From: Pristiophorus japonicus
Lineage: Eukaryota
Reading direction: 5' to 3'
Length of the DNA: 64,000 bases
NCBI RefSeq assembly: GCF_044704955.1
Contig: NC_091984.1
Span: forward strand, 146,940,001-147,004,000
In this document: positions 1 to 45,724 of the stretch, piece by piece
Layout: each line of letters starts with the position of its first letter
How positions within the stretch are numbered: the stretch's first letter is position 1
Program-made: the position numbers and the translations under genes
The notes under the pieces: generated by a model
Databases searched by the model: none
What the model was told of the DNA's origin: nothing
What the model saw: only the letters and a program-made list of their open reading frames with translations

Positions 1-1998
1 TTTCTTTCTTCAAATTAGGTTTTGTATTTTACACGGAGGGCCCGTAACTCCATAAAGTTGTTAATTTAAAATTTAAATCCTTTTTTTGTTTTGAGCTAGA
101 AGCTTTCTTAAAAGGCATTCTTTATCTCATTCCGAGACTAAATTTATGTCTTTCAATCCAATGTAATCAATCATTGCACGTTTTCTTTCGACAAGTAAAT
201 TCTTTTTTTTTTTAACCACCGTGACCATGTATTTATTATGTTTTACTCAACAAACCTATCCTTTGTACATTTCCGAGCTCCGTAACTTATCATCCGAATA
301 AATCCACACCTGCGTTTCTAATTTAAAATGTCTTAAAACTTTCCACATACAGAACAACACTACAAAGGGTTAACTAAAATAAACAGACACTTGCATTCCT
401 CTTCCAACCAGGCTTTCAGAAACATGACAACATAAAAATTCATTCCGCAGTTACAAAATCACACAGGGACTCTCACTCAACGACCAGACATTTACAACAG
501 TCTCTCTTCTTTCCTTTAAAATTTTGGATCCATTGAAACTTTCAAGGAATTCATAGTTTTATCTAAATAATTCCTCACATAACTTTTGTAGTGGACAACC
601 GGTATTGTTTTTTTTTTCCGTTCCTTCACCCACCATTCCCGTTAGGTTGCTGACAGGTCCTACCCTGCTCTAATCATTTTCTCGATTAGTTTCACTTGCT
701 TTTCCGCCAGATGGCGGGTAATGGACCCTTCTGATCCCCACTCGAGTTTACTTGTTTTCATGGTCATTCCTGGGTAGGACTAGTACCGTTAGGAATCTAC
801 TCTCAGAGGTCCGCTTCCTTCCCAGCGCAACTTGGAGTAGACCGTCTCCTAGCTACTGTCAGGTCACAAGTTCTGCTGTTACACAAACTTATACAATTCT
901 TAAAACGCGTTTAACCAATTTCCCGCAGTGCTCTACGTATCCTTAACGACTACCTACCACCGCTCGGCCCATTGGTCCGACCCTGTTCACAGGTTTGGAT
1001 TCCGTTAGCCACTGTACACCGCTTGGTTCTACCCTGGGGTGTATTTCAAATTACTCTGCTGGGTCCGGAAGATGTCTTTCAGTATCACGATCCCACGGTC
1101 TAAGTGTGTTCCCGACGCCTACTTGGTTCCTGGCCGTCACTTGGGACAAAAGTCCTCTTAATTCAGACGCAGGCTAGGCGTTTGAGATATTAGATCATCT
1201 CCTCGTGTCGATCAACCAGCTTCCACCTTCTGCACCCTTTATAATTAAAAATCGTTTTTTTATACTCACCCGGGCTTTTTTCAAGGGCGCCCAGCGACTC
1301 CGGGGAATCCTGCCGACTATGCCATTGTTAGCGTGAATGTTTTCTCAGAAGAATCACTCAACACTCAGAGTCGGTTCCAACGCCAATGCAGCCTTTATTA
1401 AAGCTCAGCGGGGAGGAAGTCTCAGGACTGTATCCAGGCTTCTCTCCACTGAACAAAGGTTTTCATGGATCTTTATATGTTTTACAACAGTTTACTACAG
1501 TTACATACAACAGTTTACTACAGTTACATTAGACCAATAGCATTAGTCTCTAAACGTAAAGTGGCTCATGTGTTGCCAAGAGATGTGTTGCTAAGGGGTG
1601 TGTTGCTAGGGATGACTCATGTGTCTTGTAACATGGCCTGGGCCTCTCTTATCTTACTGTCCTTGGAAGCTGGCATTGGGTAGCCTCCTTATTAGAGTTA
1701 CATATTCGGTTCTTGTCAGCTCGGGCTGATTCATGCCCTCGTTATGTGATGTAGGCCCCTCTTATCTCTATTTCTCGGGGCTCTGCTGTGTGGAGTTACA
1801 ATGGTTTGTTATAGTTATCTTGTATTCAAGGCAGTCCTGGCAGTGGGCCTCACAGGGTTATTGCTCGGTCTGCCTCAGTCAATAGTTCACAGCTTGACTA
1901 CCTGATTTCCCATCATGCCTGGGCAGCCATTTTATGTGTGGCCACTTTAAACTTATATGAGTTTAGATATATTCAGCAGGTGCATAATGCCTACAACA
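1..1998 (-). mobile_element. LTR element A2: 5' LTR (1326-1998), PBS and leader, running off the left edge; same family as A1
   Basis: 1326-1998 is a diverged reverse complement of the LTR at 6435-7164 (TGTTGTAGG...CTAACA). 1-800 is a reverse-complement homologue of 1999-~3160. Confidence 0.85.
1307..1324 (-). promoter_or_regulatory. Primer binding site, tRNA-Ser
   Basis: Minus strand TGGCATAGTCGGCAGGAT, 1 nt from the LTR end; one mismatch to the complement of the vertebrate tRNA-Ser 3' end. A splice donor CGG|GTGAGT follows at 1269. Confidence 0.85.
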
Positions 1999-2031
1999 GT
2001 TGATTCCTAACGGTTCTAGTCCTATCCAGGA

Positions 2032-2247
2032 ATGGCCATGAAAGCAAGTAAACTCGAGTGGGGATCAGACGGGTCCATTACCCGCCATCTGGCGGAAAAG
2101 CAAAAGAAACTAATCGAGAAAATGATTAGAGCAGAGTGGGATACTCAGGACCTGCCAGCAACCCAACGGGAATGGTGGGAGAAGGAACGGAAAGTCAAAA
2201 AGAAAAAAAAGGCTGTGGTCTTGATACTGCGAGCCCATGTAAATTAA
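2032..2247 (+). pseudogene. Possible gag (matrix-like) N-terminal stub of element A
   Basis: First ORF after the leader, also present at ~610-770 on the minus strand in A2. Assignment rests on position only. Confidence 0.35.
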
Positions 2248-4280
2248 CATAGGAAGTTAATCAATAAAAGAAACTGACGGTGATTGTCTTAAGTGAAGTA
2301 TGGAAGAGGAATAGAGCCAGCCAAAACAATTAATAGGAAAGAAGAGAGATTTTTGTGAACGTCTGTTTTAAATGAGAAGTGCCTGTGTGATTTTTGACTG
2401 CGGAATGAATTTTTTATGTTTTCATGTTCCGAAAGCCTGGTTGGAAGAGGAATGCAAGTGTCTGTTTATTTTCAAAACAGAGAGAAAGTCTTTTTTAACC
2501 CTTTGTAGTGTTGTCCTGTATGTGGGAAGTTTTAAGACATTTAAGTTAGAAATGCCGGTGTGGATTTATTCGGATGATTCGGATGATAACTTACGGAGCT
2601 AGGAAATGTACAAAGGATAGGTTTGTTGAGCAAAAGATAAAAAAATACATGGTCCCGGTGGTTAAAAAAAAGAATTTACTTGTCGAAAGAAAATATGCAA
2701 TGATTGATTACATTGGATTGAAAGACATAAATTTAGTCTCGGAATGAGACAAAGAATGCCTTTTAAGAAAGCTTCTAGCTCAAAACAAAAAAAAAAGGTT
2801 TTAAATAAAGATTGAAATTACAAAGTTTGAATTGGGATTTTGAGGTATTCAGAGAAGGCACAGAAAATACTGAGGTGGATTCAAAAAAGAAAGAGATTAA
2901 ATTAAATTTGATCAGGTCAAACTCCTGGGCGAGTGGCGAGCTATCTGTGAAGGTGTAAAAGGAACTTTTGGAAAATTTTGGGATAACTAAAAGCAGCCCT
3001 TAAACCCTCAAAGCTGGACTCCATTCCAGTTATGGAGAAAAAGAAAAAGATAAAGACGCCACTTTGAAAGTAAACAAATGATTTTAAATTAACAACTTTA
3101 TGGAGTTACGAACCCTCCGTGTAAAATACAAAACCTAATTTGAAGAAAGAAAAAAAAAAGATGTAACGGACTAAATAAGTGCTGAAAAGAAAAAAATGTG
3201 TTTGTGATGGAAAAATACATAACTTACTAAATACTAGTTGATGTTTGCTGTGAAAAAGATATTGGTTTAATTAGAAGAAAAAAAATTGGAAGAGGTAAAA
3301 AACACTCGACATGGATTCGAATTTTAAATTATGAGAAAGTTTCAATGCAGTTTGAAAAGATTTCGAAAATGGACAGTGTTTATCAAGAAAAGTCCCGAAC
3401 AGTCTAAACAAGCAGGAGGGTTTTGAAGATAACGAGGAGAAAGAGAGAAATTTAAAATAAAACAAAATTGAATTTCAGTAAACAATATTGCTATTAAAAA
3501 TGTGTGGTCTCGTTTTATATCAATTTAAAAAAAAAAGATTTCTTTGGCAAGTGCTTGAATTAGATGTTAAGAAAACATTGGAGTTTTAACGGATTCCTAA
3601 TTTCTAAGCAAATTTGAAGGCACAAAGACTTTTTTTTTCAGATGATTACGTGAAGTCACGTAATGACATCAGGTCTTCTTACAAACCTGGAAAGGAGTTA
3701 ACCCTTTCCATTGACAGCCGTTTGATACTGAATATTCTTAATAGAAAAAAAAGACTCACCTAACAGAGGAAACAAAAATAAAAACAGAACTAGCTTATGT
3801 AATAATACTTGCCTGATACAATAAAGAAATAGATACTCAATAAAACAAATTAAAAGCTAAGATAAACAGGCTGGAAGAGATAACGGGACGAGACGGATAG
3901 TGCAGTGAGCAGCCATAGCACCATCACCTATGGCAATAGAGCCAATGTACCCCACGGTGGGTAGGTGTAGTCCACAAACCCAACCTAACGGTAAAGCAGA
4001 CAACGATGTTTGGAGGAATAATGGTGGCATTGGTGTTGATTGGAGTTTGTTATAATATGGGTCATCGTGCAGGCTCGAGCACAGAAGGCTCAAACGCAAA
4101 ACCGACGGCAGCCCAGACAGGGCCATGAAGTGATAGAGATGGTACGACTATAAAGAATATGGTTAACCTAATCCTTACCTCCGATTCCACAGAGTGACAG
4201 CGACACAAGTAGATCAGAACCTAACACCTGGTGACGACCAGGCTATCTGTTTAAAATTTTCAGGTAAAACACTCACCAAG

Positions 4281-6258
4281 ATGGGACCGCAGTGGTGACT
4301 CCGACTCTGGGGATTCATGATACTGGGAACCTCAAGACCCACGCAAACACTGGATGATACCAACGGATTGCAGCGCACTCAGGAAATAAACAACAACATG
4401 AACTATGGAGTCTTGTTTAATTTAACGGATGGAATGTGCATCCCAGCAGCCAAGGACTGGAGCAAGGACAGGACTTATTTTAATGCATGGTTACAAGTAA
4501 ATCCTAAGAACCGGGTATGTGTACAGTGCTTCACGGGTATAAGGAGCTGCTGCATTAAACGGAGGGATGTCAAAGGGCCCGATGAATGTACTTTCGGCAT
4601 AATTTGCACGCCTCCCGGACAGTCCCAGCAATCAGTCATCCGCAAAAAGGGAGTGGGGCTGTGTGGGTACTACAAGGAGGTGGGGGCGGCTGCAATATCA
4701 TTGTATGTGTGCTTCTCACCCCATCCGACACCGCGCCCCATAACAACCACTACATTGTCCGAGGAACTACCTTGTCCCATAACTATTAAGAGACCAGAAA
4801 ATGGGATTGTAATGTACAACGAAGGGGAATTATTGTATAATAATGTTCAACATGAAATTGTGCCTGTCCTGATCAATATTTCAGGCATCCAGATGCCGGA
4901 ATACTGTACGGAACAGTCAAGGAAAATGTACAATGTATTAAGTAAAGTTGTAATGCAGCAGGCAGCCGATGCAATGGGTGCCAGTAGATTCCGAGGACAG
5001 GGGTAAGCCCCCAGGATAAAGAGCGGAATAGTTAATGATGTTGCTACCGGTTTCAATACAGGGACCTCCGTAGTAAACTCGATAGATATACAAGGGTTAA
5101 ATGAGAGGGTGGGACAGCTTAGAGGGGTGATGAAGGGGTTATTAGAGAGGGTGGAGCAAAACCAGGAAGACCAAGCCAACCTAGGAAAGGAGGGTGCCGA
5201 AATCCAGTTGTATGGCATCTCAGTCCTGGAAGCTCATGTCAAAACCATCAATCACCTCATTGATAGAGAAAAAGAAGATACAGGAAAGCAAAGACAGGGG
5301 CAACTCTGTCACGCTTATGGTCTGTGGATGGTGGGACAGATCCGCCACAATCTCGACCAGATCCAACGCGGGGAAGTACCCGATTGGATAGGCAGTTCAC
5401 ATCTGGCTCAGTTGGCTAACCAGAGGGGGATACTGGATAATTGTACTCTGAAGGGACTGACCTGAGTATACCCAGCAATTCCAGATTGCCAGATGGGTAG
5501 GAATACTGGGATAGGGATAGTCCTGATGATCCCTATAGCCACGCCGGACTCAGGGCCGTTCCCCCTATACCAACTGGAGAATATCGGAGTAATACGGGAA
5601 AATGTCTCCATACGTTACTACCTGACCACCACCTCCGCCATTCGTCGAAACAACATACTTACTGGGATTTCCCTAACAGATTGCAAGCAAAGGGGGGAAA
5701 TCACAGTATGCCCTCACCCGGTAGGCCGAGGTGAGCTAGACGAGTGCGGGTTTAACCGAACCGATGGGTGTGTACTAGAAATAGTGCCCGCACACAGGCA
5801 CTTCGCGAGGGCAGGCTACGGAGGGAAGGGAAGATACTGCGTCTCTACCACAGAGTGTTCATAATGACTTGCAGTGCGCTATACCACAGCCAAACTTTTG
5901 CTTTACACCACTACGACCTGCCGCGATCGGGCAAGCGCATATCACCCAGGTTAGGTGGCGGAAGCCCGAAGTTATTGATGTCACCGATCAGCTCCATGAT
6001 CATTTGCAGGATTATGACGAGCCAGAGCAGGTCCCTATCCCACATCTAACCGAAGTATTACGAGAATTGAGGCTCAGAGTGGGTCAATCCGTAAAGCTCT
6101 ACCACCAACTGCAAACTAAAATCAAAGTACTGGAAGAAGATATCGATGTAGACTTACAAAGTCAGAGTTGGTGGAGAAAGGTCTGGGACTGGGGAATAAA
6201 TGTGAACATCCATCCTTGGATTCGAATAATTTCACACATACTGGTTGGGATACAATAA
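4281..6258 (+). pseudogene. env: Lokiretrovirus-type envelope (Mononegavirales F-like class I fusion protein), disrupted
   Basis: Acceptor TTTTCAG| at 4263, ATG 4281, signal-like start, Cys-rich N-terminal part, degenerate cleavage site RIKS|GIVNDVATGFNTGTSVVNSIDIQGL, heptad region, Cys-rich region, second heptad, WWRKVWDWG and a TM start. In-frame stops near 4296, 5004 and 5463 and a frameshift near 5860. No CKS-17/CX6CC motif. Confidence 0.75.
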
Positions 6259-6434
6259 AGGGGCAGGAGGATTTGGCCTTTGTCAATTTGATTTCAGCAA
6301 CCGGGACTCCTGAAACCACGTGACTGGCCAGCATGTTGAGGCAGGGAGTACCGGGCCGTGCACAAAATCTAATTAAAATAGGGCGGTCGGTTAAAGGGGG
6401 ACTAGGACTAGTCCCTTTACCGAAAGGAGGGAAT

Positions 6435-7164
6435 TGTTGTAGGCATTAGGCACCTGCTGAATATATCAAAACACTAGGCATTAGGCACCTGCTGAATATA
6501 TCTAAACTCATATAAGTTTAAAGTGGCCACACATAAAATGGCTGCCCAGGCATGATGGGAAATCAGGTAGTCAAGCTGTGAACTATTGACTGAGGCTGAC
6601 CGAGCAATAACCCTGTGAGGCCCACTGCCAGGAATGCCTTGGATACAAGATAACTATAACAAACCATTATAACTCCACACAGCAGAGCCCCGAGAAATAG
6701 AGATAAGGGGGGCCTACATCACATAACGAGGGCATGAATCAGCCCGAGCTGACAAGAACCGAATATGTAACTCTAATAAGGAGGCTACCCAAAGACAGCA
6801 CCCAAGATAAAGGGGCCTGGACAATGTTACAAAATACATGAGTAATTCCTAGCAACACACCCCTTAGCAACGCATCTCTTGGCAACACATGAGCCACTTT
6901 ACGTTTAGAGACTAACTCTATCTATTGGTCTAATTGAATCTATAATCAGTATGATTGGATAGTATCCAGCTGAAATGGGCTGATGTAACTGTAGTAAAGA
7001 ACTATTGTAAAACATATAAATATCGATGAGTTTCTTTGTTCGGCGGAAAGAAGCCTGGATACAGTCCTGCGACTTCCTCCCTACTGGCGTTAATAAAGGC
7101 CGCACTGGCGTTGGAACCGACTCTGAGTGTTGAGTGATTCTTCTGATAAACTCTAACACTAACA
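6435..7164 (+). repeat. 3' LTR of A1
   Basis: TG...CA ends, preceded by PPT; AATAAA near 7092; short internal duplication near the 5' end. Confidence 0.9.
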
Positions 7165-8166
7165 GTGTCAAGCCCCCTCATAATCTTATATGTTTCAATA
7201 AGATCACCTCTCATTCTTCTGATTTCCAATGAGTCGAGGCCCAACCTACTCTACCGTTACTCATAAGTCAACCCCCTTATCCCTGGAATCAACCAAGTGA
7301 ACCTTCTCTGAACTGCCTCCAAAGCAAGTATATCCTTTCTTAAATATGGAAACCAAAACTTTATGCAGTGTTCCAGTTGTGGCCTCACCAATACCCTGTA
7401 TAACTGTAGCAAACACTTCCCTACTTTTATACTCCATCCCCTTTGCAATAAAGGCCAAGATTCCATTGGCCTTCCTGATCACTTGCTATACCTGCACACA
7501 AACCTTTTGTGTTTCATGTACCAGGAACCCCAGGTCACGCTGTACTGTAGCACTTTGTTATTTTTCTCCATATAAATAATAACTTGCTCTTCGATTCTTT
7601 GCTGGATTTTAAAAGCTTTCCAATCTTCTGCCCTCCCACTAGTTTTGGCCACATTGTATGCCCTTGTTTTTAATTGGATACCATCCTTTATTTCTTTAGT
7701 TAGCCATGGATGGCTATCTTTTCTTTTACACCCTTTGCTCCTCACTGGAAGATATTATTCTTGAGAATTATTAAATATCTCCTTAAATATACGTCACTGT
7801 TCATCAACCGTCCTAAATTTTAATCTATTTTCCCAGTCCACTTTAGCCAACTCTGCCCTCATACCTTTGTAGTCTCCTTTATTTAAGCTTAGTACGCTGG
7901 TTTGAGATTCAACTTTCTCACCCTCCATCTGAATTTGCAATTCAACCATGTTATCATCACTCATTCCAAGGGGATCGTTTACTGGGAGATTGTTTATTAA
8001 TCCTGTCTCATTACACTGGACCAGATCTAAGATAGCCTGTCCCCTGGTTGGTTCTGTTACATACTGCTCAAGGAACCCATCCCTTATGTCGTCGATGAAC
8101 TCTTCTTCAACGCTACCCTGACCAATTTGATTTGTCGCATCAATATGGAGGTTAAAATCACCCATT
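7165..8166 (-). mobile_element. CR1 LINE fragment, internally deleted
   Basis: ORF2 pieces: GDFNLHID endonuclease motif, and LYRVLVRPQLEHC / RRMRGDLIETYKI C-terminus. Confidence 0.9.
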
Positions 8167-8889
8167 ACAAGTCATACCACAACAACTTCCAGCGCGAGCT
8201 GCTCCACGTGAGCAACGGCTTCGAGGTGGGCGATTGGGTGATGTCATCAGGACCCAGGTCGCCATTTGGAGCGTGGGCAGGAGCATCAGCTGGGCCTAGA
8301 TAAAGGAGAGAAGCGGGAAGGTCATGGCGGAGGTGTGGCAAGTGATTGAGACGGAGGAGCGATGAGGGATCATGGCTGAGATTCGGTATGTGATCGTGGC
8401 AGAGGTCCGGCAAATGTTTAGTGCGGAGGTGCGGTGGGAGACTGTGGCAGAGGTCAGGCTGATGTTTGATGCAGAGGTGCGGCGAGAGATCGTGGCGGAG
8501 GTCAGGCGAATGTTTGGTGCAGAGGAGCTGTGAGAGATCGTGGCAGAAGTGCGACTAATGAGGGTTCGGAACCCAAAAGAGCCGAGGGCCCAGGGGCAGC
8601 ACGGGCCTGCCCACACTGCGATATGTGTGCGCACTAGATCCATGCAGCAGAGCAGGTCTCCAGTCGTCCTGGTTTACCCTTGCCATTGGATAAAGGCCTA
8701 GCTCTTTCAAGCCCGTGTGGTGGCTGATGTGCAACAGTCACCACATGTTAAAGAAAATCTACACATAGGCATCTTCCACCCCCTCAATTGCCGTTCAGGA
8801 CTAGAATATCGGGTTCTTCATTGAGACATCTCTGAACTCATTTGGAAGCAAGTCATCCTCGTTCGAGGGATCACCAAAGATGATGATGA
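8167..8889 (+). mobile_element. RTE-tailed non-autonomous retroposon with internal ~48-bp tandem repeats
   Basis: Ends GGAAGCAAGTCATCCTCGTTCGAGGGA...(GAT)n, like the RTE 3' ends at ~48270 and ~60290; 48-bp repeats at ~8395-8550. Confidence 0.55.
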
Positions 8890-9221: not shown

Positions 9222-9555
9222 GCTATTGGTGGACCAATAGGAAGGAGCCATGTTTCCTGGTCCCTATTGGGGGACCAATAGGAAGGAGCCATGCTTCCTC
9301 GTCCATATTGCAGGACAGATAGGAAGGAGCTTAGTTTCCTGGTCTAATTGGAGGACCAATAGAAATGAGCCATTTTTCCTGGTCTCTATTGGGAGACCAA
9401 CAGAAAGGAGCCATGATTCCTGGTCTCTATTGGGGAACCAACAGGAAGGAGCCATATTTCCTGGTGCCTATTGGGAGACCAATAGGAAGGAGCCATATTT
9501 CCTGGTCCCGATTGGGGAACCAATAGGAAGGATCTATGTTTCCTGGTCACTTTTG
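9222..9555 (+). repeat. 41-bp minisatellite, block 1
   Basis: Unit CCAATAGGAAGGAGCCATGTTTCCTGGTCCCTATTGGGGGA, about 8 copies. Confidence 0.9.
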
Positions 9556-12500
9556 GGGAAGTGTTTGCTAGTGCTGTTGGGGAGGAGTTAAACTAATGTG
9601 GCAGGGGGATGGGAACCAATGCAGGGAGACAGAGGGAAACAAAAAGGAGACAAAAGCAAAAGACAGAAAGGAGATGAGGAAAAGTGGAGGGCAGAGAAAC
9701 CCAAGGCAAAGAAAAAAAAGGGCCAATGTACAGCAAAATTCTAAAGGACAAAGGGTGTTAAAAAAATAAGCCTGAAGGCTTTGTGTCTTAATGCAAGGAG
9801 TATCGTAATAAGGTGGATGAATTAACTGTGCAAATAGATGTTAACAAATATGATGTGATTGGGATTACAGAGACGTGGCTCCAGGATGATCAGGGCTGGG
9901 AACTCAACATCCAGGGTATTCAACATTCAGGAAGGATAGAACAAAAGGAAAAAGAGGTGGGGTAGCATTGCTGGTTAAAGAGGAGATTAATGCAATAGTT
10001 AGGAAGGACATTAGCTTGAATGCTGTGGAATCTATATGGGTAGAGCTGCAGAACACCAAAGGGCAAAAAACATTAGTGGGAGTTGTGTACAGACCTCCAA
10101 CCAGTAGTAGTGATGTTGGGGAGGGCATCAAACAGGAAATTAGGGGTACATGCAATAAAGGTGCAGCAGTTATCATGGGTAACTTTAATATGCACATAGA
10201 TTGGGCTAACCAAACTGGAAGCAATACGGTGGAGGAGGATTTTCTGGAGTTCATAAGGGATGGGTTTCTAGACCAATATGTCGAGGAACCAACTAGGGGG
10301 GAGGCCATTTTAGACTGGGTGTTGTGTAATGAGAGAGGATTAATTAGCAATCTCGTTATGCGAGGCCCCTTGGGGAAGAGTGACCATAATATGATGAATT
10401 CTGCATTAGGATGGAGAATGAAACAGTTAATTCAGAGACTATGGTCCAGAACTTGAAGGGTAACTTTGAAGGTATGAGGCATGAATTGGCTACGATAGAT
10501 TGGCGAATGATACTTAAGGGGTTGACTGTGGATGGGCAATGGCAGACATTTAGAGACCGCATGGATGAACTACAACAATTGTACATTCCTGTCTGGCATA
10601 AAAATAAAAAAGGGAAGGTGGCTCAATCGTGGCTATCAAGGGAAATCAGGGATAGTATTAAAGCCAAGGACGTGGCATAGAAATTGGCCAGAAATAGCAG
10701 CGAACCCGGGGACTGGGAGAAATTTAGAACTCAGCAGAGGAGGACAAAGGGTTTGATTAGGGCAGGGAAAATAGAGTACGAGAAGAAGCTTGAAGGGAAC
10801 ATTAAGACGGATTGCAAAAGTTTCTATAGATATGTAAAGAGAAAAAGGTTAGTAAAGACAAACGTAGGTCTCCTGCAGTCAGAATCAGGGGAAGTCATAA
10901 CTGGGAACAAAGAAATGGCAGACCAATTGAACAAGTACTTTGGTTCGGTATTCACTAAGGAGTACACAAACAACCTTCCGGATATAAAAGGGATCAGAGG
11001 GTCTAGTAAGGAGGAGGAACTGAGGGAAATCCTTATTAGTCGGGAAATTGTGTTGGGGAAATTGATGGGATTGAAGGCCGATAAATCCCCAGGGCCTGAT
11101 GGACTGCATCCCAGAGTACTTAAGGAGGTGGCCTTGGAAATAGCGGATGCATTGACAGTCATTTTCCAACATTCCATTGACTCTGGATCAGTTCCTATGG
11201 AGTGGAGGGTAGCCAATGTAATCCCACTTTTTAAAAAAGGAGGGAGAGAGAAAACAGGGAATTTTCGACCGGTCAGCCTGACCTCAGTAGTGGGTAAAAT
11301 GATGGAATCAATTATTAAGGATGTCATAGTAGCGCATTTGGAAAGAGGTGACATGATAGGTCCAAGTCAGCATGGATTTGTCAAAGGGAAATTATGCTTG
11401 ACAAATCTTCTGGAATTTTTTGAGGATGTTTCCAGTAGAGTGGACAAGGGAGAACCAGTTGATGTGGTATATTTGGACTTTCAGAAGGCTTTCGACAAGG
11501 TCCCACACAAGAGATTAATGTGCAAAGTTAAAGCACATGGGATTGGGGGTAGTGTGCTGACGTGGATTGAGAACTGGTTGTCAGACAGGAAGCAAAGAGT
11601 AGGAGTAAATGAGTACTTTTCAGAATGGCAGGCAGTGACTAGTAGGGTACCGCAAGGTTCTGTGCTGGGGCCCCAGCTGTTTACATTGTACATTAATGAT
11701 TTAGATGAGGGGATTAAAAGTAGTATCTCCAAATTTGCGGATGACACTAAGTTGGGTGGCAGTGTGAGCTGTGAGGAGGATGCTATGAGGCTGCAGAGTG
11801 ACTTGGATAGGTTAGGTGAGTGGGCAAATGCATGGCAGATGAAGTATAATGTGGATAAATGTGAGGTTATCCACTTTGGTGGTAAAAACAGAGAGACAGA
11901 CTATTATCTGAATGGTGACAGATTAGGAAAAGGGGAGGTGCAATGAGACCTGGGTGTCATGGTACATCAGTCATTGAAGGTTGGCATGCAGGTACAGCAG
12001 GCGGTTAAGAAAGCAAATGGCATGTTGGCCTTCATAGCGAGGGGATTTGAGTACAGGGGCAGGGAGGTGTTGCTACAGTTGTACAGGGCCTTGGTGAGGC
12101 CACACCTGGAGTATTGTGTACAGTTTTGGTCTCCTAACTTAGGAAGGACATTCTTGCTATTGAGGGAGTACAGCGAAGGTTCACCAGACTGATTCCCAGG
12201 ATGGCGGAACTAACCTATCAAGAAAGACTGGATCAACTGGGCTTGTATTCACTGGAGTTCAGAAGAATGAGATGGGACCTCATAGAAACGTTTAAAATTC
12301 TGATGGGTTCAGAGACGTTAGATGCAGGAAGAATATTCCCAATGTTGGGGAAGTCCAGAACCAGGGGTCACAGTCTAAGGACAAGGGGTAAGCCATTTAG
12401 GACCGAGATGAGGAGAAACTTCTTCACCCAGAGAGTGGTGAACCTGTGGAATTCTCTACCACAGAAAGTTGTTGAGGCCAATTCACTAAATATATTCAAA

Positions 12501-12678
12501 AAGAAGTTGGATGATGTCCTTTCTACTAGGGGGATCAAGGGGTATGGCGAGAAAGCAGGAATGGGGTACTGAAGTTGCATGTTCAGCCATGAACTCATTG
12601 AATGGCGGTGCAGGCTAGAAGGGCCGAATGGCCTACTCCTGCACCGATTTTCTATTTTTCTATGTTTCTATGTTTCTA
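9556..12678 (+). mobile_element. 5'-truncated CR1 LINE (ORF1 end plus disrupted ORF2)
   Basis: Endonuclease and RT ORFs (KFADD), (TTTCTATG)n tail; closely similar to the full-length copy at 42635-47253. Confidence 0.95.
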
Positions 12679-12790
12679 TTACCAGTAGGAAGGAGCCAGG
12701 TTTCCTGGTCTTTATTGGAGGGCCAATAAGTAGGAGCCATGTATGTTGGTCTCTTTTGGGGCACCAATAGGAAGGAGCTATAATTCCTGG
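12679..12790 (+). repeat. 41-bp minisatellite, block 2
   Basis: The same unit resumes right after the CR1 tail. Confidence 0.85.
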
Positions 12791-13786: not shown

Positions 13787-15096
13787 TCAAGTCCACCAAA
13801 GGCCCAAGGCCCCACCCCACTGCTGGCCAAGAACAGGGAGACACTCATCAAGGACACCAAGGCAGTCAGGACTCACTGGAAGGAGCACTTTGAAGATCTC
13901 CTTAATTGAGACTCAGCCTTAGACACGAGTGTCCTCGACTCCATTCGCAGCATGCTACCCGCCACCTTCTCAGTAAAATCCCAGCCCTGCACGAGGTTGA
14001 AACATAGAAACATTGAAAATAGGTGCAGGAGTAGGCAATTTGGCCCTTTGAGCCTGCACAACCATTCAATAAGATCATGGCTGATCATTCACCTCAGTAT
14101 TCCTTTCCTGCTTTCTCTCCATACCCATTGATCCCTTTAGCTGTAAGGGCCATATCTAACACCCTCTTGAATATATCCAATGAACTGGTATCAACAACTC
14201 TCTGCGGCAGGGTATTCCACAGGTTAACAACTCTCTGAGTGAAGAAGTTTCTCCTCATCTCCGTCCTAAATGGCCTACCCCGTATCCTAAGACTGTGTCC
14301 CCTGGTTCTGGACTTCCTCAACATTGGGAACATTCTTCCCGCATCTAACCTGTCCCGTCCCGTCAGAATCTTATATGTTTCTATGAGATCTCCTCTCATC
14401 CTTCTAAACTCCAGTGTATAAAGTCCCAGTTGATCCAGTCTCTCCTCATATGTCAGCTCAAGAACAACAAGGCATCGGGAGCGGATGGAATCCCTGCTGA
14501 GGCATTAAAGTATGGCAGAGAGGCACTATTGGCACGAATGCATAACCTCACCTCTCTCATCTGGAGGGAGGAGAGCATGCTGGGAGATCTCCGAGTTGCA
14601 GTAATCGTGATCCATCTTTGAAAACGGGGACAAGTCCGACTGCGGCAACCGCAGAGGAATCTCCCTGTTATCAGCCACTGGGAAAGTCGTCGCTAGAATC
14701 TTCCTCAACCGTCTTCTCCCTGTGGCTGAGGAGCTCCTGCCGGAGTCACAATGCGGATTCCGTCCACTACCGGGTACAACATACATGATATTTACAGCGC
14801 AACAACTGCAAGAGAAAATCAAGGAACAGCACCAACCCTTGTACATGGCCTTCTTTGACCTTACAATGGCCTTTGACACTGTTAACCGCGAGGGTCTTTG
14901 GAGCGTCGTCCTCCGTTTCGGCTTCCCCCAAAAGTTTGTCGCCATTCTTGGCCTGCTCCACGATGACATGCAGGCCGTGATCCTGACCAATGGATCCATC
15001 ATAGATCCAATCCACGTCCGGACCGGGGTCAAGCAGGGTGCGTCATCGCGCAAACCCTCTTCTCGATCTTCCTCACTGCAATGCTCCACCTCACAC
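13787..15096 (+). mobile_element. RTE-clade LINE fragment, interrupted by a minus-strand CR1 3' end (~14000-14455)
   Basis: WKEHFEDLLN, KASGADGIPAE, LLPESQCGFRP, FFDLTMAFDTV and TGVKQG motifs. Confidence 0.85.
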
Positions 15097-15647
15097 TGTG
15101 GATATCTGAACGGAATATATGGAATTAAGGACAGTAAAGTAAACGGGATATATGAAAATGTATAAGCCATGGAAGAATAGCTGGGAGAATGTCAGATTGC
15201 AAATAGTGCAACATCAGCATAACTAACAGTCTTTCTCAAGGTTTCAAGTCACTAATCCTGCCAATAACATCTAATTGTAACATGAAATAAATCTGCAGAA
15301 TTGCAAGGTCTCAGTTAATAGTCACACCACTAGATTGAAACATTTAGAGGCAATGCTTGAGCTTTCATAAAAACATCTCATATAGATTGACTAATGAGTA
15401 GCTGAGTTAGAATGTCAATCTAATTGTATTTTGTTATCTGATTTCAAAACTGTATAACTGTTGACGCTTTATGATGTAACTTCACCTATCCGTAGGGAGT
15501 GTGTACGCTCTATCCAGAGAGTATATCTTCTGTCTGATAGGTCTTACTGGCCGGTAATAAAGATTGCTTTGTTCAAAGCACAAGAGGTATTCGATTCAGT
15601 AATTTTACTGAACCAGATTGAGGTAAAAGAATCCAGGAATTTACATT

Positions 15648-15665
15648 TGGTGTCAGAAGTGGGAT
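15648..15665 (+). promoter_or_regulatory. Primer binding site, tRNA-Leu
   Basis: TGGTGTCAGAAGTGGGAT, 2 nt after the 5' LTR. Confidence 0.9.
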
Positions 15666-17407
15666 CTCAATGGACGATTGCCGAAAACTTGCGAATTAAG
15701 AGCCAGACTAGCCTTGGACGAGACGAGGGGAAAGTGGCCACTGGAGTGAGTATGATTTCAATACTGCTCCAGTTTCGCCCGGTTTCAAAAGTCTGAGGAA
15801 AGTTTAGCCACTCGCTGGTTCTCAGGTAGTGTCTGAACGAGATCCAGGACAATCTGATGAATACCTTTCAAACGTAGAATAGGGATAGAGATAGGGAAAT
15901 TGCGCGATGACGCAAACCAAGCGGCGACTTGGAAAGATAGTTAGAGCTAGATAGGGATAGATGATCAATCATGGATCCAAAAATGAATAGGAAAGAAAAG
16001 AGACTCTTGTGAATGTCTGTTTAAATGAGAAATGCTTCTGTGATTTTTACTGTAAAAAAAAAGCTGGGGAGTTGTGGTTTGTTTTATCTCAAACAGAATG
16101 AAAGTTTGTTTTAACCCTTCATAGTGTTGTCCTGTATGTGGGAAGTTTAAGAGTGTGAACCTTACTAAAATACTTATATTCGGATGATAAGTTACGGAGC
16201 CAGGAAATGCACAAAGGATAGGTTTGTTAAAAAAAAAAAGAAAAAATGACATGGTCCCGGTGGTTAAAAAAAAAGAAAAACTTGTTGAAAGAAAACATTC
16301 AGAGAAGGCACAGCAAAACAACTGAGATGGATTCAAAAGGATTCAAAAAAAAATTATATTAAATAACACGACCTTGAGGCTGGAACAATTGAGATAACGA
16401 AAAGCAGTCCACAGCCTTTGTGCCAGACTTCTCTCTAGTCATGGAAAAAAAAGTAACGTACTAAATAGGTGCTGAAAGAAAAAAATGTTCTGAGATTTTA
16501 AATTATGGAAAAAATTCCACTGCAGTAAAAAAAAATACAATCACTCCTGTCCAGTTGGCAGAAAAACTCCATTAAATTAGGGCTTTCATTGACTGATTGA
16601 ATTTAAACTGCGCAGTAACGCGAAAGGATAGGGAAATTTGGAAACTGAAAGAAATTAATTGAGGCTCATAAGAAATCAAAATTAGAAAATTAGGCTCACA
16701 GGGAATAAAATGGGGATTTAAATAGAGGATAGGTGTTCAATTCAGGTACGACGTCGACCTTGTATATCACTTGACCCGTCGAGGCTCTGATTGAATTTAA
16801 AAACCCACAGCAACTCGGAAGGTAGGGCCGACGCGAACGTGCAGCGGTGCAAACGACGCGAACGTGCAGCGACACTAATGCGTAGTGACGCAAACGCGCA
16901 GTGACGCAGACGCGCAGTGACGCCGACGCGTAGTGAAGCAGAGGCGCAGCAACGCGAATCGCGAAAGTCAGTGCTAATGTCAGTAAGTCTTTGTAAGTCT
17001 TAAGTGTTTAGAGTTTTAAGTATTTAAATCGCGCGGCGATGCGAACCGCGCGGCGACGCGGGTAAGTGTTAGAAGTCCTTGTTTATCTTTTAAAGTTTTA
17101 AGTATCTTAACTCACGCGGCGACGTGAGCCACGGGTCGACGCGGATTGCGTGGCAACGTGTACTGCGAGGAAATGCGGATTGTGCGGCGACGTGAACTGC
17201 GGGGTGACGTGGGAGTTTTAAGAATCGCGCGGCGACACGAACCGCGCGGCGACGTGGCTAAGTGTTAGCATTAGTAAAGTTTGTTTATTTGGAGTTAGTT
17301 AAAGTCAGTGTTAGTTTCTGTAAAGTCTGTGTCTATTTTTAAGTTTGTTTAAATTGCACGACGACACGAACGCGTAACGACACGGTAATACGCGAGGCAG
17401 TGTGAAA

Positions 17408-18740
17408 ATGGGTAATCAGTTGGATAAAACAACGGATGCGGATAGTCCGCTACAAAAGCTATGTGAGGAATTCCCTGAAAGAGCTGAAGACTTTAGAAAA
17501 TTATCAGGAGCCCTAAACAAATTATTGGGAGATGATCAATGGCCTCTAGGTGGCACTAGAAGCATAGAGGTAGTAAAAAAATAAGCACAGGGATTGTTAA
17601 AAAAAAAATTAATTAAAAGATGCATCACTTCTGTCAAGTTGGCAAACAAATGCTATTAAATTAGGACTTGCATTGACAGAGGGAACACATTTTAAAACTG
17701 TAGACGTCTTTAAAAAAAAAAGAATGTGCGCACGAGAAACTTACTAAGAGATCCTCTGGGACCTCTGAGAAAGGTATTGACCAACTACGTAGCAAAAATG
17801 GCTGGCTTTGTGTTAACCGAGGCTGATGATGAAATTGATGAGTGACCACTGACTCAGCGCCCAACGGCGCCTCCCGCACCCCCTGGCCTCTTGCTCCAGT
17901 CCTCTTCCCAACACCCTCCACCTAACACTCCGGTAAAAAGAGTTAGGAACAACCCCATATCACCAAAGCAACAAACCCAAACTGACTCCTCATCCTCTGA
18001 TAGCGATTCGGATCCCCAGTTTACAAGCAATATAGCCGAAAAAACCAGATCTCATACTCGAAAGGGCAGAACTATATCTCGACATCACAGACAGTCCCGT
18101 AAATCTTCTAGTCAATCTACCAGTCCAAGTTGTGAAAGACATAGCAAACACCCCCGCCGATCAAGACGCAGAACTGTCAAGCAGTCAGACAGCTCCGAAA
18201 CATCCTCCGACCTAGAAATGATTTCCAAGATCCCAAAGTCCCGACACCAATTCCCTGTCAGACCAATGCCAAACCCTGATGCACAACAAGCTGCAGACCA
18301 CCCCACTATCCGGACAAATGGAGAGGACAGTTAGATATTATTGGCAGGAAAAGAAAAGGGAGGGGGGAGGTGCGCCCCCAACCCGGGTCAAGACTGAATA
18401 CGTGACTAGAAAGGAAGAGCCATCTCGGGAGGAAGGATCAATAGAACCGTAGTGTTGCATACAGGATTGGATGGATAAGCAAGGATACGGTTATACTAAA
18501 CAACCAAACGGCCCGAGCCCTGCTAATAAACCTCCCTATTGTCCCCGGCATGGTATGGGAAGAGGCCGGGACTGGGTAAGAGGAATTGACTGTTTTAATT
18601 GTGGGCAGGAAGGACATTGGAATAAAAATTGCCCCTACCGTCAGCATGGAAAAGGAAGAGGAGGGGGGCAAGGGGGGAGAGGAGGACCTTACACTAACTT
18701 CTCCCAGAACAACCCATTTGGTCAATTGTCCCCCGATTGA
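17408..18740 (+). pseudogene. gag: ERV B gag, with frameshifts and capsid largely missing
   Basis: MGNQ myristoylation-type start, WPLGGT matrix motif, CCHC knuckle CFNCGQEGHWNKNC. Confidence 0.85.
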
Positions 18741-21140
18741 CTACGCAGCTTGATTGTGCAGGGATCCTCCCCGGACGACGAACCCATTCTGAATGAGTGG
18801 CAACCCTTTTTGATAGATACGGGAGCCTTCTTGTCTTCTGTACAATCAAAGCTTAAACTCCCTGCCTCTACTGAAACACAGGAACTTTCAGGATTCCTGG
18901 GACAAATCTCGACATTCCCAGTGTCAGAACCGGTTAAAATGGGTTACCAGGAAGAATCGGTGGAACATCGAGTTGTTATCACAACCAATCTGGACTGTAA
19001 CTTGATGGCTAGAGACCTCCTCTGCAAATTCCAGTTGCATTTGAAGTGTGGAGATGATGGGATTATTGTAAAACAGGAAACCCTTAAGCGGCAGTATTAT
19101 ACCACTAGAACCCCTCAGTGGTGGTCTCTGGACCTGCCGCAGGCACCCTATCACGTGACCCTAGCATACGATCCCAGTGGAAAGAATCGGGACCTGCAGA
19201 ACTTTTATCAGGATCACGAAGGGGAAGTGAAGGGAATTCTATTAAGGGCTAGAGTGATTGGACTGGAAAGAGAGGCAGATTTTGTGGAAGTGGATAAGAA
19301 TCTGTGGAAACAGCCCCTAACAATGGCACCGCATATTGCTCGTGAAGTATTAGCCCCTCACCATGCTAAAGATTTGGGAGTTATGGTACGCAAGGCCATA
19401 GATGAGGCTGACCCGACCAGCCGGGATGTGCAAATTTCATGGGGACCCCGAGAAGGTCTTAACGACTCTACAGCATCATACTGGCTCGGACATACCTGAC
19501 TATGTGGATCCTCATGTGTGGGCAGAGAACCCCTCCCAAGTGGGTTATACTCCCATTGATCCGATTGAGATCCCAGTGCAGGGCAATGTGGACTGGCCCT
19601 CTATCCGACAGAACCCACTGAAATCACAGGCAATCCTAAACTAACCTTTCGGCACTGTACTGTAATTAATCCGGCCTGTTTTCTTACTGAGCCACCCCAA
19701 GATGAGGAAGAACCCAGTCATGATTGCTTATCTTTAATTTAAGAGGCCACATCAGTCAGGGAAGATTTAGTTGATGTACCAATGGAAGATCCAGACTGTA
19801 TTCTTACTGAACCAACCCAAGATGAGGAAGAACCCAGTCATGATTGTTTATGTATGTTGACGGAAGTACTTCTATTAATCCAGAAGATACACGAATCTCA
19901 GGATACGCCATAGTAAACCAGGAAAATCAGGTCTTGGAATCTGCCGCTTTTGAAACCGCCTATTCTGCTCAACAAGCTGAACTATTCGCCCTCACCCAAG
20001 CCTGTATCTTGGCCAAAGATCTCAAAGTCAATATCTATACCGACTCTAGGTATGCCTTTGGGGTGGCCCATGATTTCGGACAATTATGAAAAAATAGGGG
20101 ATTCCTAACCTCACAGGGGAATGAGATATCTCATAAACAGTTAGTATCTGATTTGTTACAAGCCCTCATGTTCCCCAAACGCATTGCCATTGTCAAATGT
20201 ACCGCCCATACTACCGGAAATTCTCTGGTTGATATAGGGAATCGTTGTCCTGACCAAGAGGCCAAACAGGCCTCTCGTGACCAACAGATGGTAGTGCCCA
20301 AAATTATGAGTCAGACTAAAAATCCTGCGAAGGATAAGTTAGCCTCGGAAAAACCAATGCCAACCATCCAAGATGTTATAAAAGCACAGGAGGACGTTCC
20401 TGAAAAAGATAAACTGTTGTGGAAATATTATGCATGTACTTATGACAATGTTTCTAAACTCTGGACCACTCCCGCGGAACAGACTTGCATGTCTGACAAG
20501 TTGGCTCTGAGTTATTGAATGTATGCATTTTGCTACTCATTGTGGAGCAAGGACCACGAGTGACACACTTTTGGCTACTTGGGGGCACCCTAGACTCCAG
20601 GCGCTCACCCAGAACATCAGTAGTCGTTGCCTGGTTGGCCAGCAACATAATCCAGGGAAGGGAGTCCCCTGTGATTGGGGTAAAAAGCCCCTACCCGAAG
20701 GTCCCTTTGAGACATTTCAGTTGGACTACATTGAGTTGCAAAAAGTTCAGTGTTACAAATATGTGTTAGTAATAGTAGATGTGTTTAGCAGATGGATTGA
20801 AGCCTACCCTAACCTGGACAATAAGACTCAGACTGTTGTTAAGGTGTTAATGAGGGAAATTGTTCCTAGATATGAGATCTCAGCTAGACTGTTGACCACC
20901 TATGTTCTTTCTCTGACTCAGGCTCTGCGACTAGTTCACAACCAGGTTCAAGATGCTCACCTCGACCTCCCAGTTTTACCCGAATTGTCCCTCGTGGCAC
21001 CAGGGAAGTATGGATTCGGAAGGGATTAGAGCCACAATGGGAGGGTCCTTTTCAGGTGTCACTCACTACCCCCACTGCAGCCAAGGTAGAGGGGAAAAGT
21101 GCCTGGGTTCACCTGCACCACTGCAAGCTCATCACCATTT
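18741..21140 (+). pseudogene. pol: ERV B pro-pol remnant: protease, 2H-like insert, RT nearly all deleted, RNase H, partial integrase
   Basis: FLIDTGA; YVDGS...AQQAEL...IYTDSRYAFGVAH; LVIVDVFSRWIEAYP. No LPQG or YxDD found. Confidence 0.9.
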
Positions 21141-21337
21141 AAACAAATTTTGCTGGTTAGTCTAATTCCTGTTTCTGTTCCAGATCTCCTCTTCCCCATA
21201 GCTGAACAAGGCAGTTGAAGGAGGATCAGTTTGAACTTTTACCCGTAAGACAGCCAAATACACTGACGGAGACCTGAAGAAGGGAAACGGGAAAACAGAA
21301 CTCTTTTTATCAGCTAAATAATTGGACTATTTATAAG

Positions 21338-22076
21338 ATGAGACTGTGTCTGTATGCCACTGTCTGCATAATAGTGTTGTTATATGACAGTTTTGGCGCA
21401 CGGGAAGGAAGACAAAGGCGAGAGCTCCATGTAAACACCTTTTTGTATATATCTTACGTTTATGTGGAAAAAGGGCACTTCACTAGATGCTGGGTGTGTT
21501 CACATATCCCTATACATTCCAAAGGGGGAATTCCTTTGCGCACCGTTCCACTGACCCTAACTGAAACTGTTAGATGGATTCAAAGAAACGATATTGGAAC
21601 AGGTAGCTAACCGCACTGCTGAGGCTCTGGAGGGCATCACAGCTGAAATGGTAGTGATAAGGACCATAGCATTACAAAACCGAATGGCCCTCGATTACCT
21701 GTTAGCTGAGAAAGGGGGAACGTGTGCCCTGATAGGATCTGAATGTTGCACTTACATTCCTGATAGTTCAGAAAACATAACCCACCTTGCCGATCACATA
21801 AGGAGGGAGGTGAAGAAGTTATCCACACCAGCAAAAGAACTTAGCAGGTTTGATTGGTTTCTGGGTGGATCTTGGAGATCCTATCTAATAATAATTACCT
21901 GCTGTTTGATTGTTGGTTGCCTTAACCTCTGCTGTAAAGTAATGATGACAAGGTTAGCAGACCCTCTTGTGGTCAAGGGTTCCCGGGTTATGATCCAACA
22001 AACTAGAGAACTACTCAACAATAATATGATTCTGGAAAAGGAGTGTGAACGGATGAATGCAATACTCCAAGAATGA
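21338..22076 (+). pseudogene. env: ERV B gamma-type env, most of SU and the fusion peptide deleted
   Basis: Acceptor at 21183, signal peptide, CWVC motif, then ISD LQNRMALDYLL and CX6CC (CALIGSECC), and a TM segment. Confidence 0.92.
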
Positions 22077-22664
22077 TCCTAAATGTTATCATAGAATGAT
22101 AAAAGGAGGGATGTGGATATCTGAACGGAACATATGGAATTAAGGACAGTAAAGTAAACAGAATATATGAAAATGTATAAGCCATGGAAGAATAGCTGGG
22201 AGAATGTCAGATTGCAAATAGTGCAACATCAGCATAGCTAACAGTCTTTCTCAAGGTTTCAAGTCACTAATCCTGCCAATAACATCTAATTGTAACATGA
22301 AATAAATCTGCAGAATTGCAAGGTCTCAGTTAATAGTCACACCACTAGATTGAAACATTTAGAGGCAATGCTTGAGCTTTCATAAAAACATCTCATATAG
22401 ATTGACTAATGAGTAGCTGAGTTAGAATGTCAATCTAATTGTATTTTGTTATCTGATTTCAAAACTGTATAACTGTTGACGCTTTATGATGTAACTTCAC
22501 CTATCCGTAGGGAGTGTGTACGCTCTATCCAGAGAGTATATCTTCTGTCTGATAGGTCTTACTGGCCGGTAATAAAGATTGCTTTGTTCAAAGCACAAGA
22601 GGTATTCGACTCAGTAATTTTACTGAACCAGATTGAGGTAAAAGAATCCAGGAATTTACAACAC

Positions 22665-31863: not shown

Positions 31864-33708
31864 TCACCAGCCGGTGTCATAGGAGTCCCAGAACTTTCCC
31901 ATGCGGGCACCTTCTTTGGCCAGTTTGTCAGCCTGTTGGTTTCCCTCTGCACGGGGTTCGGTTTTTGAATGGGCCTTCACCTTATGTATGTCGACCTTTT
32001 CCTCTTCCCCCACTGCTGTCATGATTTTCTCCAGCAGGGGCTTGATTGCCAGGGGTCTCCCATCAGCGGACGTGTATCCGCGACGGGACCAGATAGCCAG
32101 GTACTCCGTACATGAATTGCAGGTGAACATACTGTCCGAGCAAATCATGTACGGGGTAGGGAATTCCTCGGGGTGGGTCACCACGTACATTATGACGGAC
32201 AGTTCAGCATGCTGGACGCTCATGGTGCTGGGGAGCTTGATTGCCAGGGCAATACCTGCCCTTGGGTCATAGACTCCGCACCCAGTGAGTCGCTCGTCAG
32301 CAGATACCGTGCTGGACCCGTCCACGTAGATGTCCCGGCCTGTAGGGTGTAACCCCGCCCGAAGGCCAATGTTCACCTCCCATACCCCTTCTATGGAGCA
32401 CCTGTGGGCTTTCCCTGGATAGATTAGGTTGGCTGCGAGCCTTGGCTCGCGGGGGCCTTCTACTCTGAGGTCCATCTGGGAGAGGAGCAGGGTCCAGCGA
32501 GCAATGCGGGCACTGCTCACCGTCCCGTCCTTAATCCTCCCATCTAGGAGCATCTGAGTAGGTGTGTGGTGGGTTAGGAGTGTTAGAGGAGACCCTCTTG
32601 TGAAGATCAAGGATCTTTTCACTGCCCAATGTGTGGCTAGGAGGTGTCTCTCACAGTTGGAGTACCCCTTCTCCACATCTGTGAGGATCCTGGAGGAGTA
32701 AACCACCGGTCTCAGTTGGCCGTGCCGCTCTTGAAGCAGCACTGAGCTCAAACTGTCCCCGCTGGCTGCCACCTCCAGGAAAAACTCCTTTCCTACATCT
32801 ATCGCTCCTAAGGCTGGCGCGGTCTGCAAGTCCTTCTTGAGCTGATTAAATGCTGCCTCGCAACCCTCATCCCAGTCCCACTCTACACCCTTGTGTAGGA
32901 GCCTGAGCAGAGGGGCTGCGGTGGCTGCATAATCCTCAATGAAGTCTCTGCAGTACCCGGTGAGTCCGAGAAAGGATCTTACCCCTGTCACTGTGTTGGG
33001 GGCTGGTAACTCCTGTACTGCCTCCCTTCTAGCCTTATCTATGGCCCTTTCCCCAGCGCGCACAGTCAGCCCCAGGAATTTGACTTCTTTCTGGCCGATC
33101 TGTGCCTTCTTGGGATTTACTTTAAACCCTTCTTCTTTTAGCAGCTCCAGCAGCTCAGCCAACAGTGGGCCATGCTCCTCCCCCTGATCGGTGAACAGAA
33201 GCAGGTCATCCACATACTGCACCAACTGCTGGGGTCTGCTAAAGCCCTTTAAACAGTTCGCCATACATTGGTGAAAAATGCTGGAGCTGTTGTGGAAGCC
33301 TTGGGGAAGACAGTTCCACGTGTATTGTTGGCCCTTAAAAGTAAAGGCGAACTTGTACTGGTCCTCCCGTTTTAAAGAAATGGACCAGAACCCACTTGAT
33401 ATATCCAGCACCGTGAAAGTGGTCGCGGATGCTGGAATACTCCCTATGAGATCCGCTACGGCTGCTACAGTGGGTGCACAGGCAGGGATATTCTTATTTA
33501 GTACTCGATAGTCCACGGTGGCCCTCCATGAGTTGTCCGGTTTCTTAACCGGCCACAGTGGAGAGTTCACATGGATTGATATCGGTCTTAACACCCCTTG
33601 CTCTACCAGTGATCCCAACACCGTTGTCAGGTCTGCGTCTGCCTCCCTGGGGAAGTTATATTGCTTTTGTGGCCGGGTCATGGGGTCCCCTACTATACTA
33701 ACTTCCAC
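31864..33708 (-). CDS. pol: RT, degenerate RNase H (tether) and second RNase H; open for 614 aa
   Basis: NSPLWPVKK, LDISSGFW, LPQGFHNS, YVDD; a Ty3-like RH lacking catalytic Asp residues; then YVDGS...HAEL...SDS...KVKAH...GNQQAD. Confidence 0.92.
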   Translation of the reverse strand: MEVSIVGDPMTRPQKQYNFPREADADLTTVLGSLVEQGVLRPISIHVNSPLWPVKKPDNSWRATVDYRVLNKNIPACAPTVAAVADLIGSIPASATTFTVLDISSGFWSISLKREDQYKFAFTFKGQQYTWNCLPQGFHNSSSIFHQCMANCLKGFSRPQQLVQYVDDLLLFTDQGEEHGPLLAELLELLKEEGFKVNPKKAQIGQKEVKFLGLTVRAGERAIDKARREAVQELPAPNTVTGVRSFLGLTGYCRDFIEDYAATAAPLLRLLHKGVEWDWDEGCEAAFNQLKKDLQTAPALGAIDVGKEFFLEVAASGDSLSSVLLQERHGQLRPVVYSSRILTDVEKGYSNCERHLLATHWAVKRSLIFTRGSPLTLLTHHTPTQMLLDGRIKDGTVSSARIARWTLLLSQMDLRVEGPREPRLAANLIYPGKAHRCSIEGVWEVNIGLRAGLHPTGRDIYVDGSSTVSADERLTGCGVYDPRAGIALAIKLPSTMSVQHAELSVIMYVVTHPEEFPTPYMICSDSMFTCNSCTEYLAIWSRRGYTSADGRPLAIKPLLEKIMTAVGEEEKVDIHKVKAHSKTEPRAEGNQQADKLAKEGARMGKFWDSYDTGW

Positions 33709-36046: not shown

Positions 36047-36099
36047 TTTACTTCATTTCCTGAAACCAGTCTCTCTCTTATCACGTCCCTTGTACCAGT

Positions 36100-42625: not shown

Positions 42626-42740
42626 ACGTAGTTACATAGAAACATAGACATAGAAACATAGAAAATAGGTGCAGGAGTAGGCCATTCGGCACTTCTAGCC
42701 TGCACCGCCATTCAATGAGTTCATGGCTGAACATTCAACT

Positions 42741-45647: not shown

Positions 45648-45724
45648 CTCCTTTCTGTCTTTTGTTTTTGCCTCCTTTTTGTTTCCCTCTATCTCCCTGC
45701 TTTGGTTCCCATCCCCCTGCCATA

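Follow-up and report, generated by a model that had tools for sequence, protein, structure and literature searches.

A gag- and pol-less endogenous retrovirus family of the shark Pristiophorus japonicus with a predicted F-type env broken near its start, probably mobilised by complete relatives

The window analysed here comprises 64,000 nucleotides of the Pristiophorus japonicus genome (NCBI RefSeq assembly GCF_044704955.1, contig NC_091984.1, positions 146,940,001 to 147,004,000 of the forward strand). Near its left end lies most of a defective endogenous retrovirus (ERV), element A, which consists of a long terminal repeat (LTR), a short gag stub, ~2 kb of AT-rich filler, env and a second LTR, with no protease (PR), reverse transcriptase (RT) or integrase (IN). 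Positions 1999-7164 hold the 3′ three quarters of the element, from a remnant of the leader to the 3′ LTR (Table 1); the 5′ LTR, primer-binding site (PBS) and splice donor are found 3.9-6.6 kb left of the window. A preliminary description of the locus had placed the start of the element at 1999, which is wrong, since this is the point where a second family member, copy B, is inserted in the leader of element A on the minus strand, with a 4-bp target-site duplication containing one mismatch. The two copies announced in that description are thus both present, but env and the 3′ LTR of copy B lie 1.1-3.9 kb left of the window. Searches of positions 1999-7165 by tblastn with gag, PR and pol queries from complete relatives recovered only gag residues 1-105, at 2020-2334, all other matches having E>0.4. 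PR, RT, RNase H (RH) and IN are therefore absent from this interval, as had been stated for PR, RT and IN, whereas the view of env as the only large gene holds for the size of env but overlooks the gag stub.

Part of the filler (2325-2699) shows 71% similarity to leader sequence at 15979-16301 that belongs to an unrelated ERV (blastn E 1e-47). The PBS is complementary to tRNA-Ser(AGA) genes of the same genome. tRNA-Ser-like 3′ ends matching the PBS also occur in long tandem arrays with a 1.95-kb period (C23:11.7-20.4 Mb), with >1100 matches genome-wide. The LTR and 1.1 kb of flanking DNA are duplicated at 99.9% identity (L031 3428-5611 versus window 6435-8256), which leaves a solo-like LTR and a partial 5′ LTR of element A. 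LTR identity is higher in element A (99.5%) than in the nested copy B (97.2%), which raised the idea that the two had been copied as a single unit. This was rejected: their junction is found once in the genome and the 1.1-kb flank is duplicated beside the LTRs of element A, a combination pointing to local duplication or conversion.

Table 1. Features of element A and of the nested copy B within the window
Feature	Position	Strand	Remarks
Element A, remainder of leader	1999..2031	+	First 4 bases are one copy of the target-site duplication of copy B
Element A, N-terminal gag stub	2032..2334	+	Frame open to 2247; 63% to helper gag residues 1-105, E 5e-29
Element A, AT-rich filler replacing gag-pro-pol	2335..4180	+	No conserved open reading frame (ORF) in ORF scan
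Element A, env splice acceptor	4250..4263	+	AG at 4262-4263
Element A, broken F-type env (predicted)	4281..6258	+	~659 codons
Element A, polypurine tract (PPT)	6422..6433	+	Identical in other copies
Element A, 3′ LTR	6435..7164	+	AATAAA at ~7091; 99.5% to full LTR 5.8-6.6 kb left of window
Copy B, leader, gag stub and filler	1..1263	-	Runs past left window edge; inverted match to 1998-3152 at 80-97%
Copy B, splice-donor motif	1264..1273	-	GT kept in 37/40 family copies
Copy B, PBS	1305..1324	-	Complementary to tRNA-Ser(AGA)
Copy B, 5′ LTR (TG...CA)	1326..1998	-	97.2% to own 3′ LTR, ~86% to LTR of element A

The pol-less element is a family and not a one-off deletion. Exact 20-mers, picked for conservation in sampled copies and without control matches, give genome-wide counts that are lower bounds: at least 912 for env, 1454 for the filler and 109 for RT. 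The filler count exceeds that of env, hence filler-bearing copies without this env may exist. Forty copies were sampled by position among the 85 exact env 20-mer matches listed for contig C1. None of the 40 contains PR, RT, RH or IN, and the filler is common to 38. The splice signals noted in the preliminary description are real at the level of the family (acceptor AG kept in 38/40 copies, leader donor GT in 37/40), although the donor of element A itself is outside the window. Target-site duplications of 5 bp in 30, 4 bp in 8 and none in 3 of the 41 copies scored (loci L082-L141) identify the copies as separate insertions; two PBS variants are found in the family (same loci). LTR mismatch ranges from 0.14 to 4.7%, with a median of 2.2% (33 of the 40 copies have an LTR pair). 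The pol-less element also forms tandem arrays (period ~5.7-6.0 kb) at C7:121285000-121318000 and C2:23962000-23976000.

Complete gag-pol-env relatives have the same LTR, leader and env as the pol-less element, so helpers are present in the genome. Twenty copies picked by RT include nine with gag, pol and env (all three frames open in five), ten gag-less copies with filler, pol and env, and one composite. The gag-less subfamily (L122-L137, 10 of the 20 RT-picked loci) is very young, with a median LTR mismatch of 0.075%; here the filler replaces gag and half of PR, RT-RH-IN is retained and env is broken early in 10/10 copies. Identity falls to ~74% among forty more pol-bearing loci, 28 of which have the greater part of this env. 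Absence of pol from all position-picked copies, the excess of env over RT and the presence of helpers support the earlier proposal of a non-autonomous family, which would be copied in trans.

The helper pol contains RT, tether, RH and IN domains. Its RT-RH region is closest to murine leukaemia virus (MLV; E 1e-109 over residues 5-573, versus 2e-57 for Ty3 and 7e-48 for foamy virus). In a ranking by similarity, RH likewise favours MLV and xenotropic MLV-related virus (XMRV; E 3e-33) over foamy virus (2lsn, E 5e-4), and the integrase gives a weak match to MLVIN_C (E 0.0026). Helper gag and pro are separated by an in-frame UGA; gag and pro-pol in one frame with a single stop between them are a feature of class I/epsilon-like ERVs. 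The helper RT groups with shark and fish class I-like RTs both in a quick tree (24 rows chosen from 100) and in a larger one (87 of 99 matches kept), where this group falls outside the gamma-like crown. Taken together, the MLV-like RT-RH and RH, the gag-pro stop and the RT trees indicate that the helper is a class I retrovirus, likely epsilon-like if that term is taken as loosely as it is for class I ERVs of fish.

Env of this family is laid out as a Cys-rich N-terminal domain of ~150 aa, a Pro/Thr linker, an F2-like part, a cleavage site, an F1-like part and a transmembrane (TM) segment. As described earlier, cleavage is late and the hallmarks of gamma-type Env are missing: the fusion-peptide-like stretch begins ~245 codons into env, CX6CC is absent, and an open copy matches no Pfam family at E<=0.1, hence neither TLV_coat nor an immunosuppressive domain (ISD). 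In element A the gene has stops at codons 6, 242 and 395 and a frame change near 5862, a separate terminal stop lies within the TM helix, and the furin motif, R-x-K-R in an open copy, is degenerate. A search for an open env among the 40 position-picked pol-less copies found none open from the ATG, and 34 of them share one of two early breaks, either the codon-6 stop of element A (19 copies) or the frameshift near codon 75 of copy B (15 copies). The codon-6 stop recurs in 385 of 468 genome-wide copies with the 5′ type of element A. A third common break, a stop at codon 115, is present in 9 of the 10 gag-less copies, and additional frameshifting deletions are common to small sublineages. Judged from these breaks, element A likely makes no working envelope.

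Selection has nevertheless left a mark on env. Among 56 pol-less copies, non-CpG env variants shared by three or more copies comprise 52 nonsynonymous (N) and 94 synonymous (S) changes and no stops, compared with 380, 161 and 33 among singletons. Distances between copies in the filler also track those in env (Mantel r 0.51). Selection in cis on env of the pol-less copies was considered and dropped, given the shared early breaks. The preliminary description had suggested that such elements could act as envelope donors. In a donor or split-genome model, pol-less copies would make working Env by stop read-through or from another start and complement gag-pol partners. The low N/S and lack of stops among shared variants, some of them private to pol-less copies, would agree with this, as would the kept splice sites and the in-frame UGA of the family, which makes read-through a familiar process. 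The results on the gene itself contradict it. In addition to the lack of any copy open from the ATG, the second subfamily is broken by a frameshift, a product begun at the next ATG would lack a hydrophobic signal (hydropathy of the best 11-mer 0.61 versus 2.07 in a pol-bearing copy), and sublineages with frameshifting deletions have been amplified. Helpers also have their own env, open for 707 codons in 6 of the 20 RT-picked copies, and the gene flow described below runs towards the defective copies. We therefore regard a donor role as improbable.

Recombination with helpers could provide another source of the signal. Of the 145 variants common to three or more pol-less copies, 105 are present also in pol-bearing copies. 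Four gametes are seen at ~29% of site pairs. A young pol-less clade is closer to old pol-less copies over env nt 1-300 (2.6% vs 6.2%) and closer to pol-bearing copies in all seven later windows, the switch falling just 3′ of its env break; the stem of this clade, with 6 N and 4 S changes, offers too few substitutions for selection to be shown. Import of helper env DNA by recombination is the best explanation of the purifying signal, and such gene flow as can be seen appears to run from helper to defective copies, with one mosaic of clear direction. Env lineages are mixed between defective and complete copies: in the env tree pol-bearing and pol-less copies are interleaved, with a few pol-bearing copies among the older pol-less ones, and one RT-bearing copy has the pol-less-type frameshift. 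Such a pattern would also be expected of a DNA reservoir, in which pol-less copies return env segments to complete copies and flow goes both ways. However, the single mosaic of clear direction points the other way, and pol-bearing copies placed with old pol-less ones may just be contemporaneous helpers, which makes a reservoir unlikely.

Env resembles no known family in single-sequence searches of Pfam and PDB, and Fusion_gly was not among the best 25 of 50 families for a 47-member env alignment. The env profile found 56 relatives, including full-length proteins from bamboo shark and frogs; named relatives are shark proteins, the closest at 92%. An AlphaFold monomer model built from a naturally open env frame (pLDDT 66, pTM 0.42) was compared with PDB by Foldseek, and every match listed is an F protein, with paramyxo- and pneumovirus F reaching E 7.6e-10. 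Residues 158-617 align to F0 with a best Z of 12.2 (rmsd 5.9, 316 aligned). The F-like nature of env proposed earlier is thereby upheld, and env is predicted to be an F-type fusion protein with an F2-cleavage-F1 fold; taken together, the pol-bearing copies and the fold model show the signal peptide, RxKR, coiled coil and TM segment of an F-like Env. The N-terminal ~150 residues form a separate Cys-rich domain, poorly modelled (pLDDT 49, beta-rich), which explains the late cleavage site. Distant homologues from bamboo shark and frogs (P0124, P0140, P0144, P0146) have the F core in common and differ in their N-terminal domains. One distant homologue has a weak Ig V-set match in this domain (E 0.045), and a Mantella env cluster has many 677-aa members. 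ESM Atlas matches of an env homologue are to F and baculovirus F clusters (0.91-0.93; weak, recognition 1608). No longer env homologues were found, in what is a weak test.

In a viral fold library, where TM-scores are low throughout (0.17-0.34), the Env of the epsilonretrovirus walleye epidermal hyperplasia virus 1 (WEHV1) is the first hit (E 4.8e-15, TM-score 0.27) and that of walleye dermal sarcoma virus (WDSV) the eleventh (E 1.7e-9, TM-score 0.17), among F and baculovirus-F-like proteins, which suggests that epsilonretrovirus Env is itself F-type. Foamy virus Env ranks 30th (E 6e-3), and the env profile weakly matches the TM ectodomain of prototype foamy virus Env (160 positions, E 0.0027). 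The env had first been called lokiretrovirus-type, and derivation of the element, or of its env alone, from a lokiretrovirus would fit the F-like fold and cleavage motif, both described for loki Env (PMC7947760). A lokiretrovirus would be expected to have an RT branching as sister to the remaining retroviruses, an RNase H of the foamy virus group and an integrase near CGIN1. This label has to be abandoned, and we consider such an origin very improbable: in the quick tree, grouping the helper RT in one clade with two RTs that carry the loki motif (taken from the supplement of PMC7947760) is rejected (p-AU 0.002), RH is MLV-like and not foamy-like, and the best viral fold match is WEHV1. By its description, the loki Env of that supplement is also set apart by cleavage ~115 residues in and by having no extra N-terminal domain.

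We consider it probable that element A, a class I, likely epsilon-like, shark ERV lacking gag and pol, is mobilised by proteins of complete relatives, and that its predicted F-type env, broken near the start, is merely non-coding cargo. The family keeps its LTRs, PBS, PPT and splice sites; transcription from the LTR would yield a passenger RNA that is packaged together with helper RNA, leaving reverse transcription and integration to helper enzymes. Template switches between co-packaged genomes, 3′ of the filler and the early break, could import helper env and 3′ sequence and so serve as a source of fresh, selection-shaped env DNA. The presence of an early break of its own in each of three amplified defective subfamilies may reflect a benefit of making no Env or drift of a few master copies. 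Several observations weigh against this interpretation. Variants absent from 35 sampled pol-bearing copies still bear a purifying signal (N/S is 19/21 for shared variants and 336/116 for singletons, p 7e-4; the count leaves out 14 distant pol-bearing copies, whose saturated synonymous sites would bias it), and the direction is the same in both subfamilies taken separately, which fits selection in cis unless donor helpers are unsampled. Linkage decay with distance is not significant (permutation p 0.14), and >600 open codons remain 3′ of the break in some pol-less copies. As to the epsilon-like affinity, the RT tree includes no WDSV RT, and the match to WEHV1 and WDSV Env is one of a predicted model with predicted models.

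A broader proposal is that WDSV/WEHV Env and the shark-and-frog env form an unrecognised F-type lineage of class I, beside the Env of foamy viruses and lokiretroviruses, whose N-terminal binding domain is exchangeable, and that in this shark three defective subfamilies silenced env near its start yet keep importing helper env DNA. We judge the chances for and against it to be about even; if it is true, F-type Env would be widespread, and possibly ancestral, in retroviruses.

Other elements are present in the window. The unrelated ERV at 15089-22660 (+) has LTRs 99% identical and degenerate gag, PR and IN; its env fragment is of gamma type (TLV_coat E 1.5e-7, with ISD and CX6CC-like motif). A third retroviral element, at 31867-36052 (-), contains an open 458-codon gag-like ORF without Pfam match and a 616-codon RT-tether-RNase H ORF about equally similar to MLV and foamy RT. 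An inverted pair of long interspersed nuclear elements (9555-12682 and 42631-45766; 92-97% identity), one with a 1002-codon endonuclease-RT frame, and an 11-bp tandem repeat array of ~3.4 kb (52650-56000) were also found.

The closest known parallel to this lifestyle is the D-type of cattle ERVK[2-1-LTR] which, according to PMC10924933, has a poorly alignable core fragment with shared flanks and PBS, makes up ~85% of copies, has no intact ORFs and recombines with competent copies. The shark family likewise keeps LTR, PBS, PPT and target-site duplication around a shared non-alignable core, has no intact gene, outnumbers its helpers and recombines with competent copies. In contrast to the cattle D-type, it keeps nearly the whole env and has a third, gag-less subfamily. 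The cattle element is betaretrovirus-like with a beta-type Env, and its de novo trans-mobilisation has been measured, whereas for the shark family copying in trans is the probable route. Recombinant koala retrovirus (recKoRV; PMC6112702) similarly keeps the virus ends around a middle from another retroelement, as part of the shark filler resembles the leader of an unrelated ERV, but recKoRV1 retains only the end of env. The picture of a defective passenger also fits the env-loss 'superspreader' idea, at least as it is cited in literature on such elements. A caution follows for studies of this kind: low dN/dS in a defective ERV that has kept env is no proof of Env expression, since the signal can be imported by recombination.

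With regard to Env, lokiretroviruses (PMC7947760) share with the shark family the gag-pol-env order, tether and RNase H, and an F-like Env with cleavage motif, coiled coil and TM segment, but differ in RT, RNase H and the length and architecture of Env; they were present in none of three chondrichthyan genomes in that survey. Foamy virus (PMC11468914) also has an F-related retroviral Env, but the shark helper pol is not foamy-like and foamy Env ranks low in the fold search. WDSV and WEHV (PMC3758190, PMC9967133) are similar in combining class I RT/RNase H with an Env lacking gamma-type hallmarks. Their Env proteins are longer (1159-1317 aa versus ~707 aa) and gave no sequence-level match to the shark env, a weak test. 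Reviews treat epsilonretrovirus Env as a case apart, either one of distinct structure that is uncharacterised (PMC3758190) or one that developed recently (PMC9967133). We found no published statement of an F-like epsilonretrovirus Env, though Calcraft 2024 may already make one, nor, in a search that did not cover Calcraft 2024, an F-type env on a class I shark retrovirus with a structural link to WEHV/WDSV Env. Screens based on ISD and CX6CC, such as a shark survey (10.64898/2026.05.06.723177), would miss such envs. A compact relative of 707 residues in young, high-copy shark proviruses, with homologues in frogs, offers a testable route to epsilon Env as an F-type fusogen. Compared with these systems, the non-autonomous lifestyle is known already, and what is new is the predicted F-type env on an epsilon-like shark virus and its env homologues in frogs.

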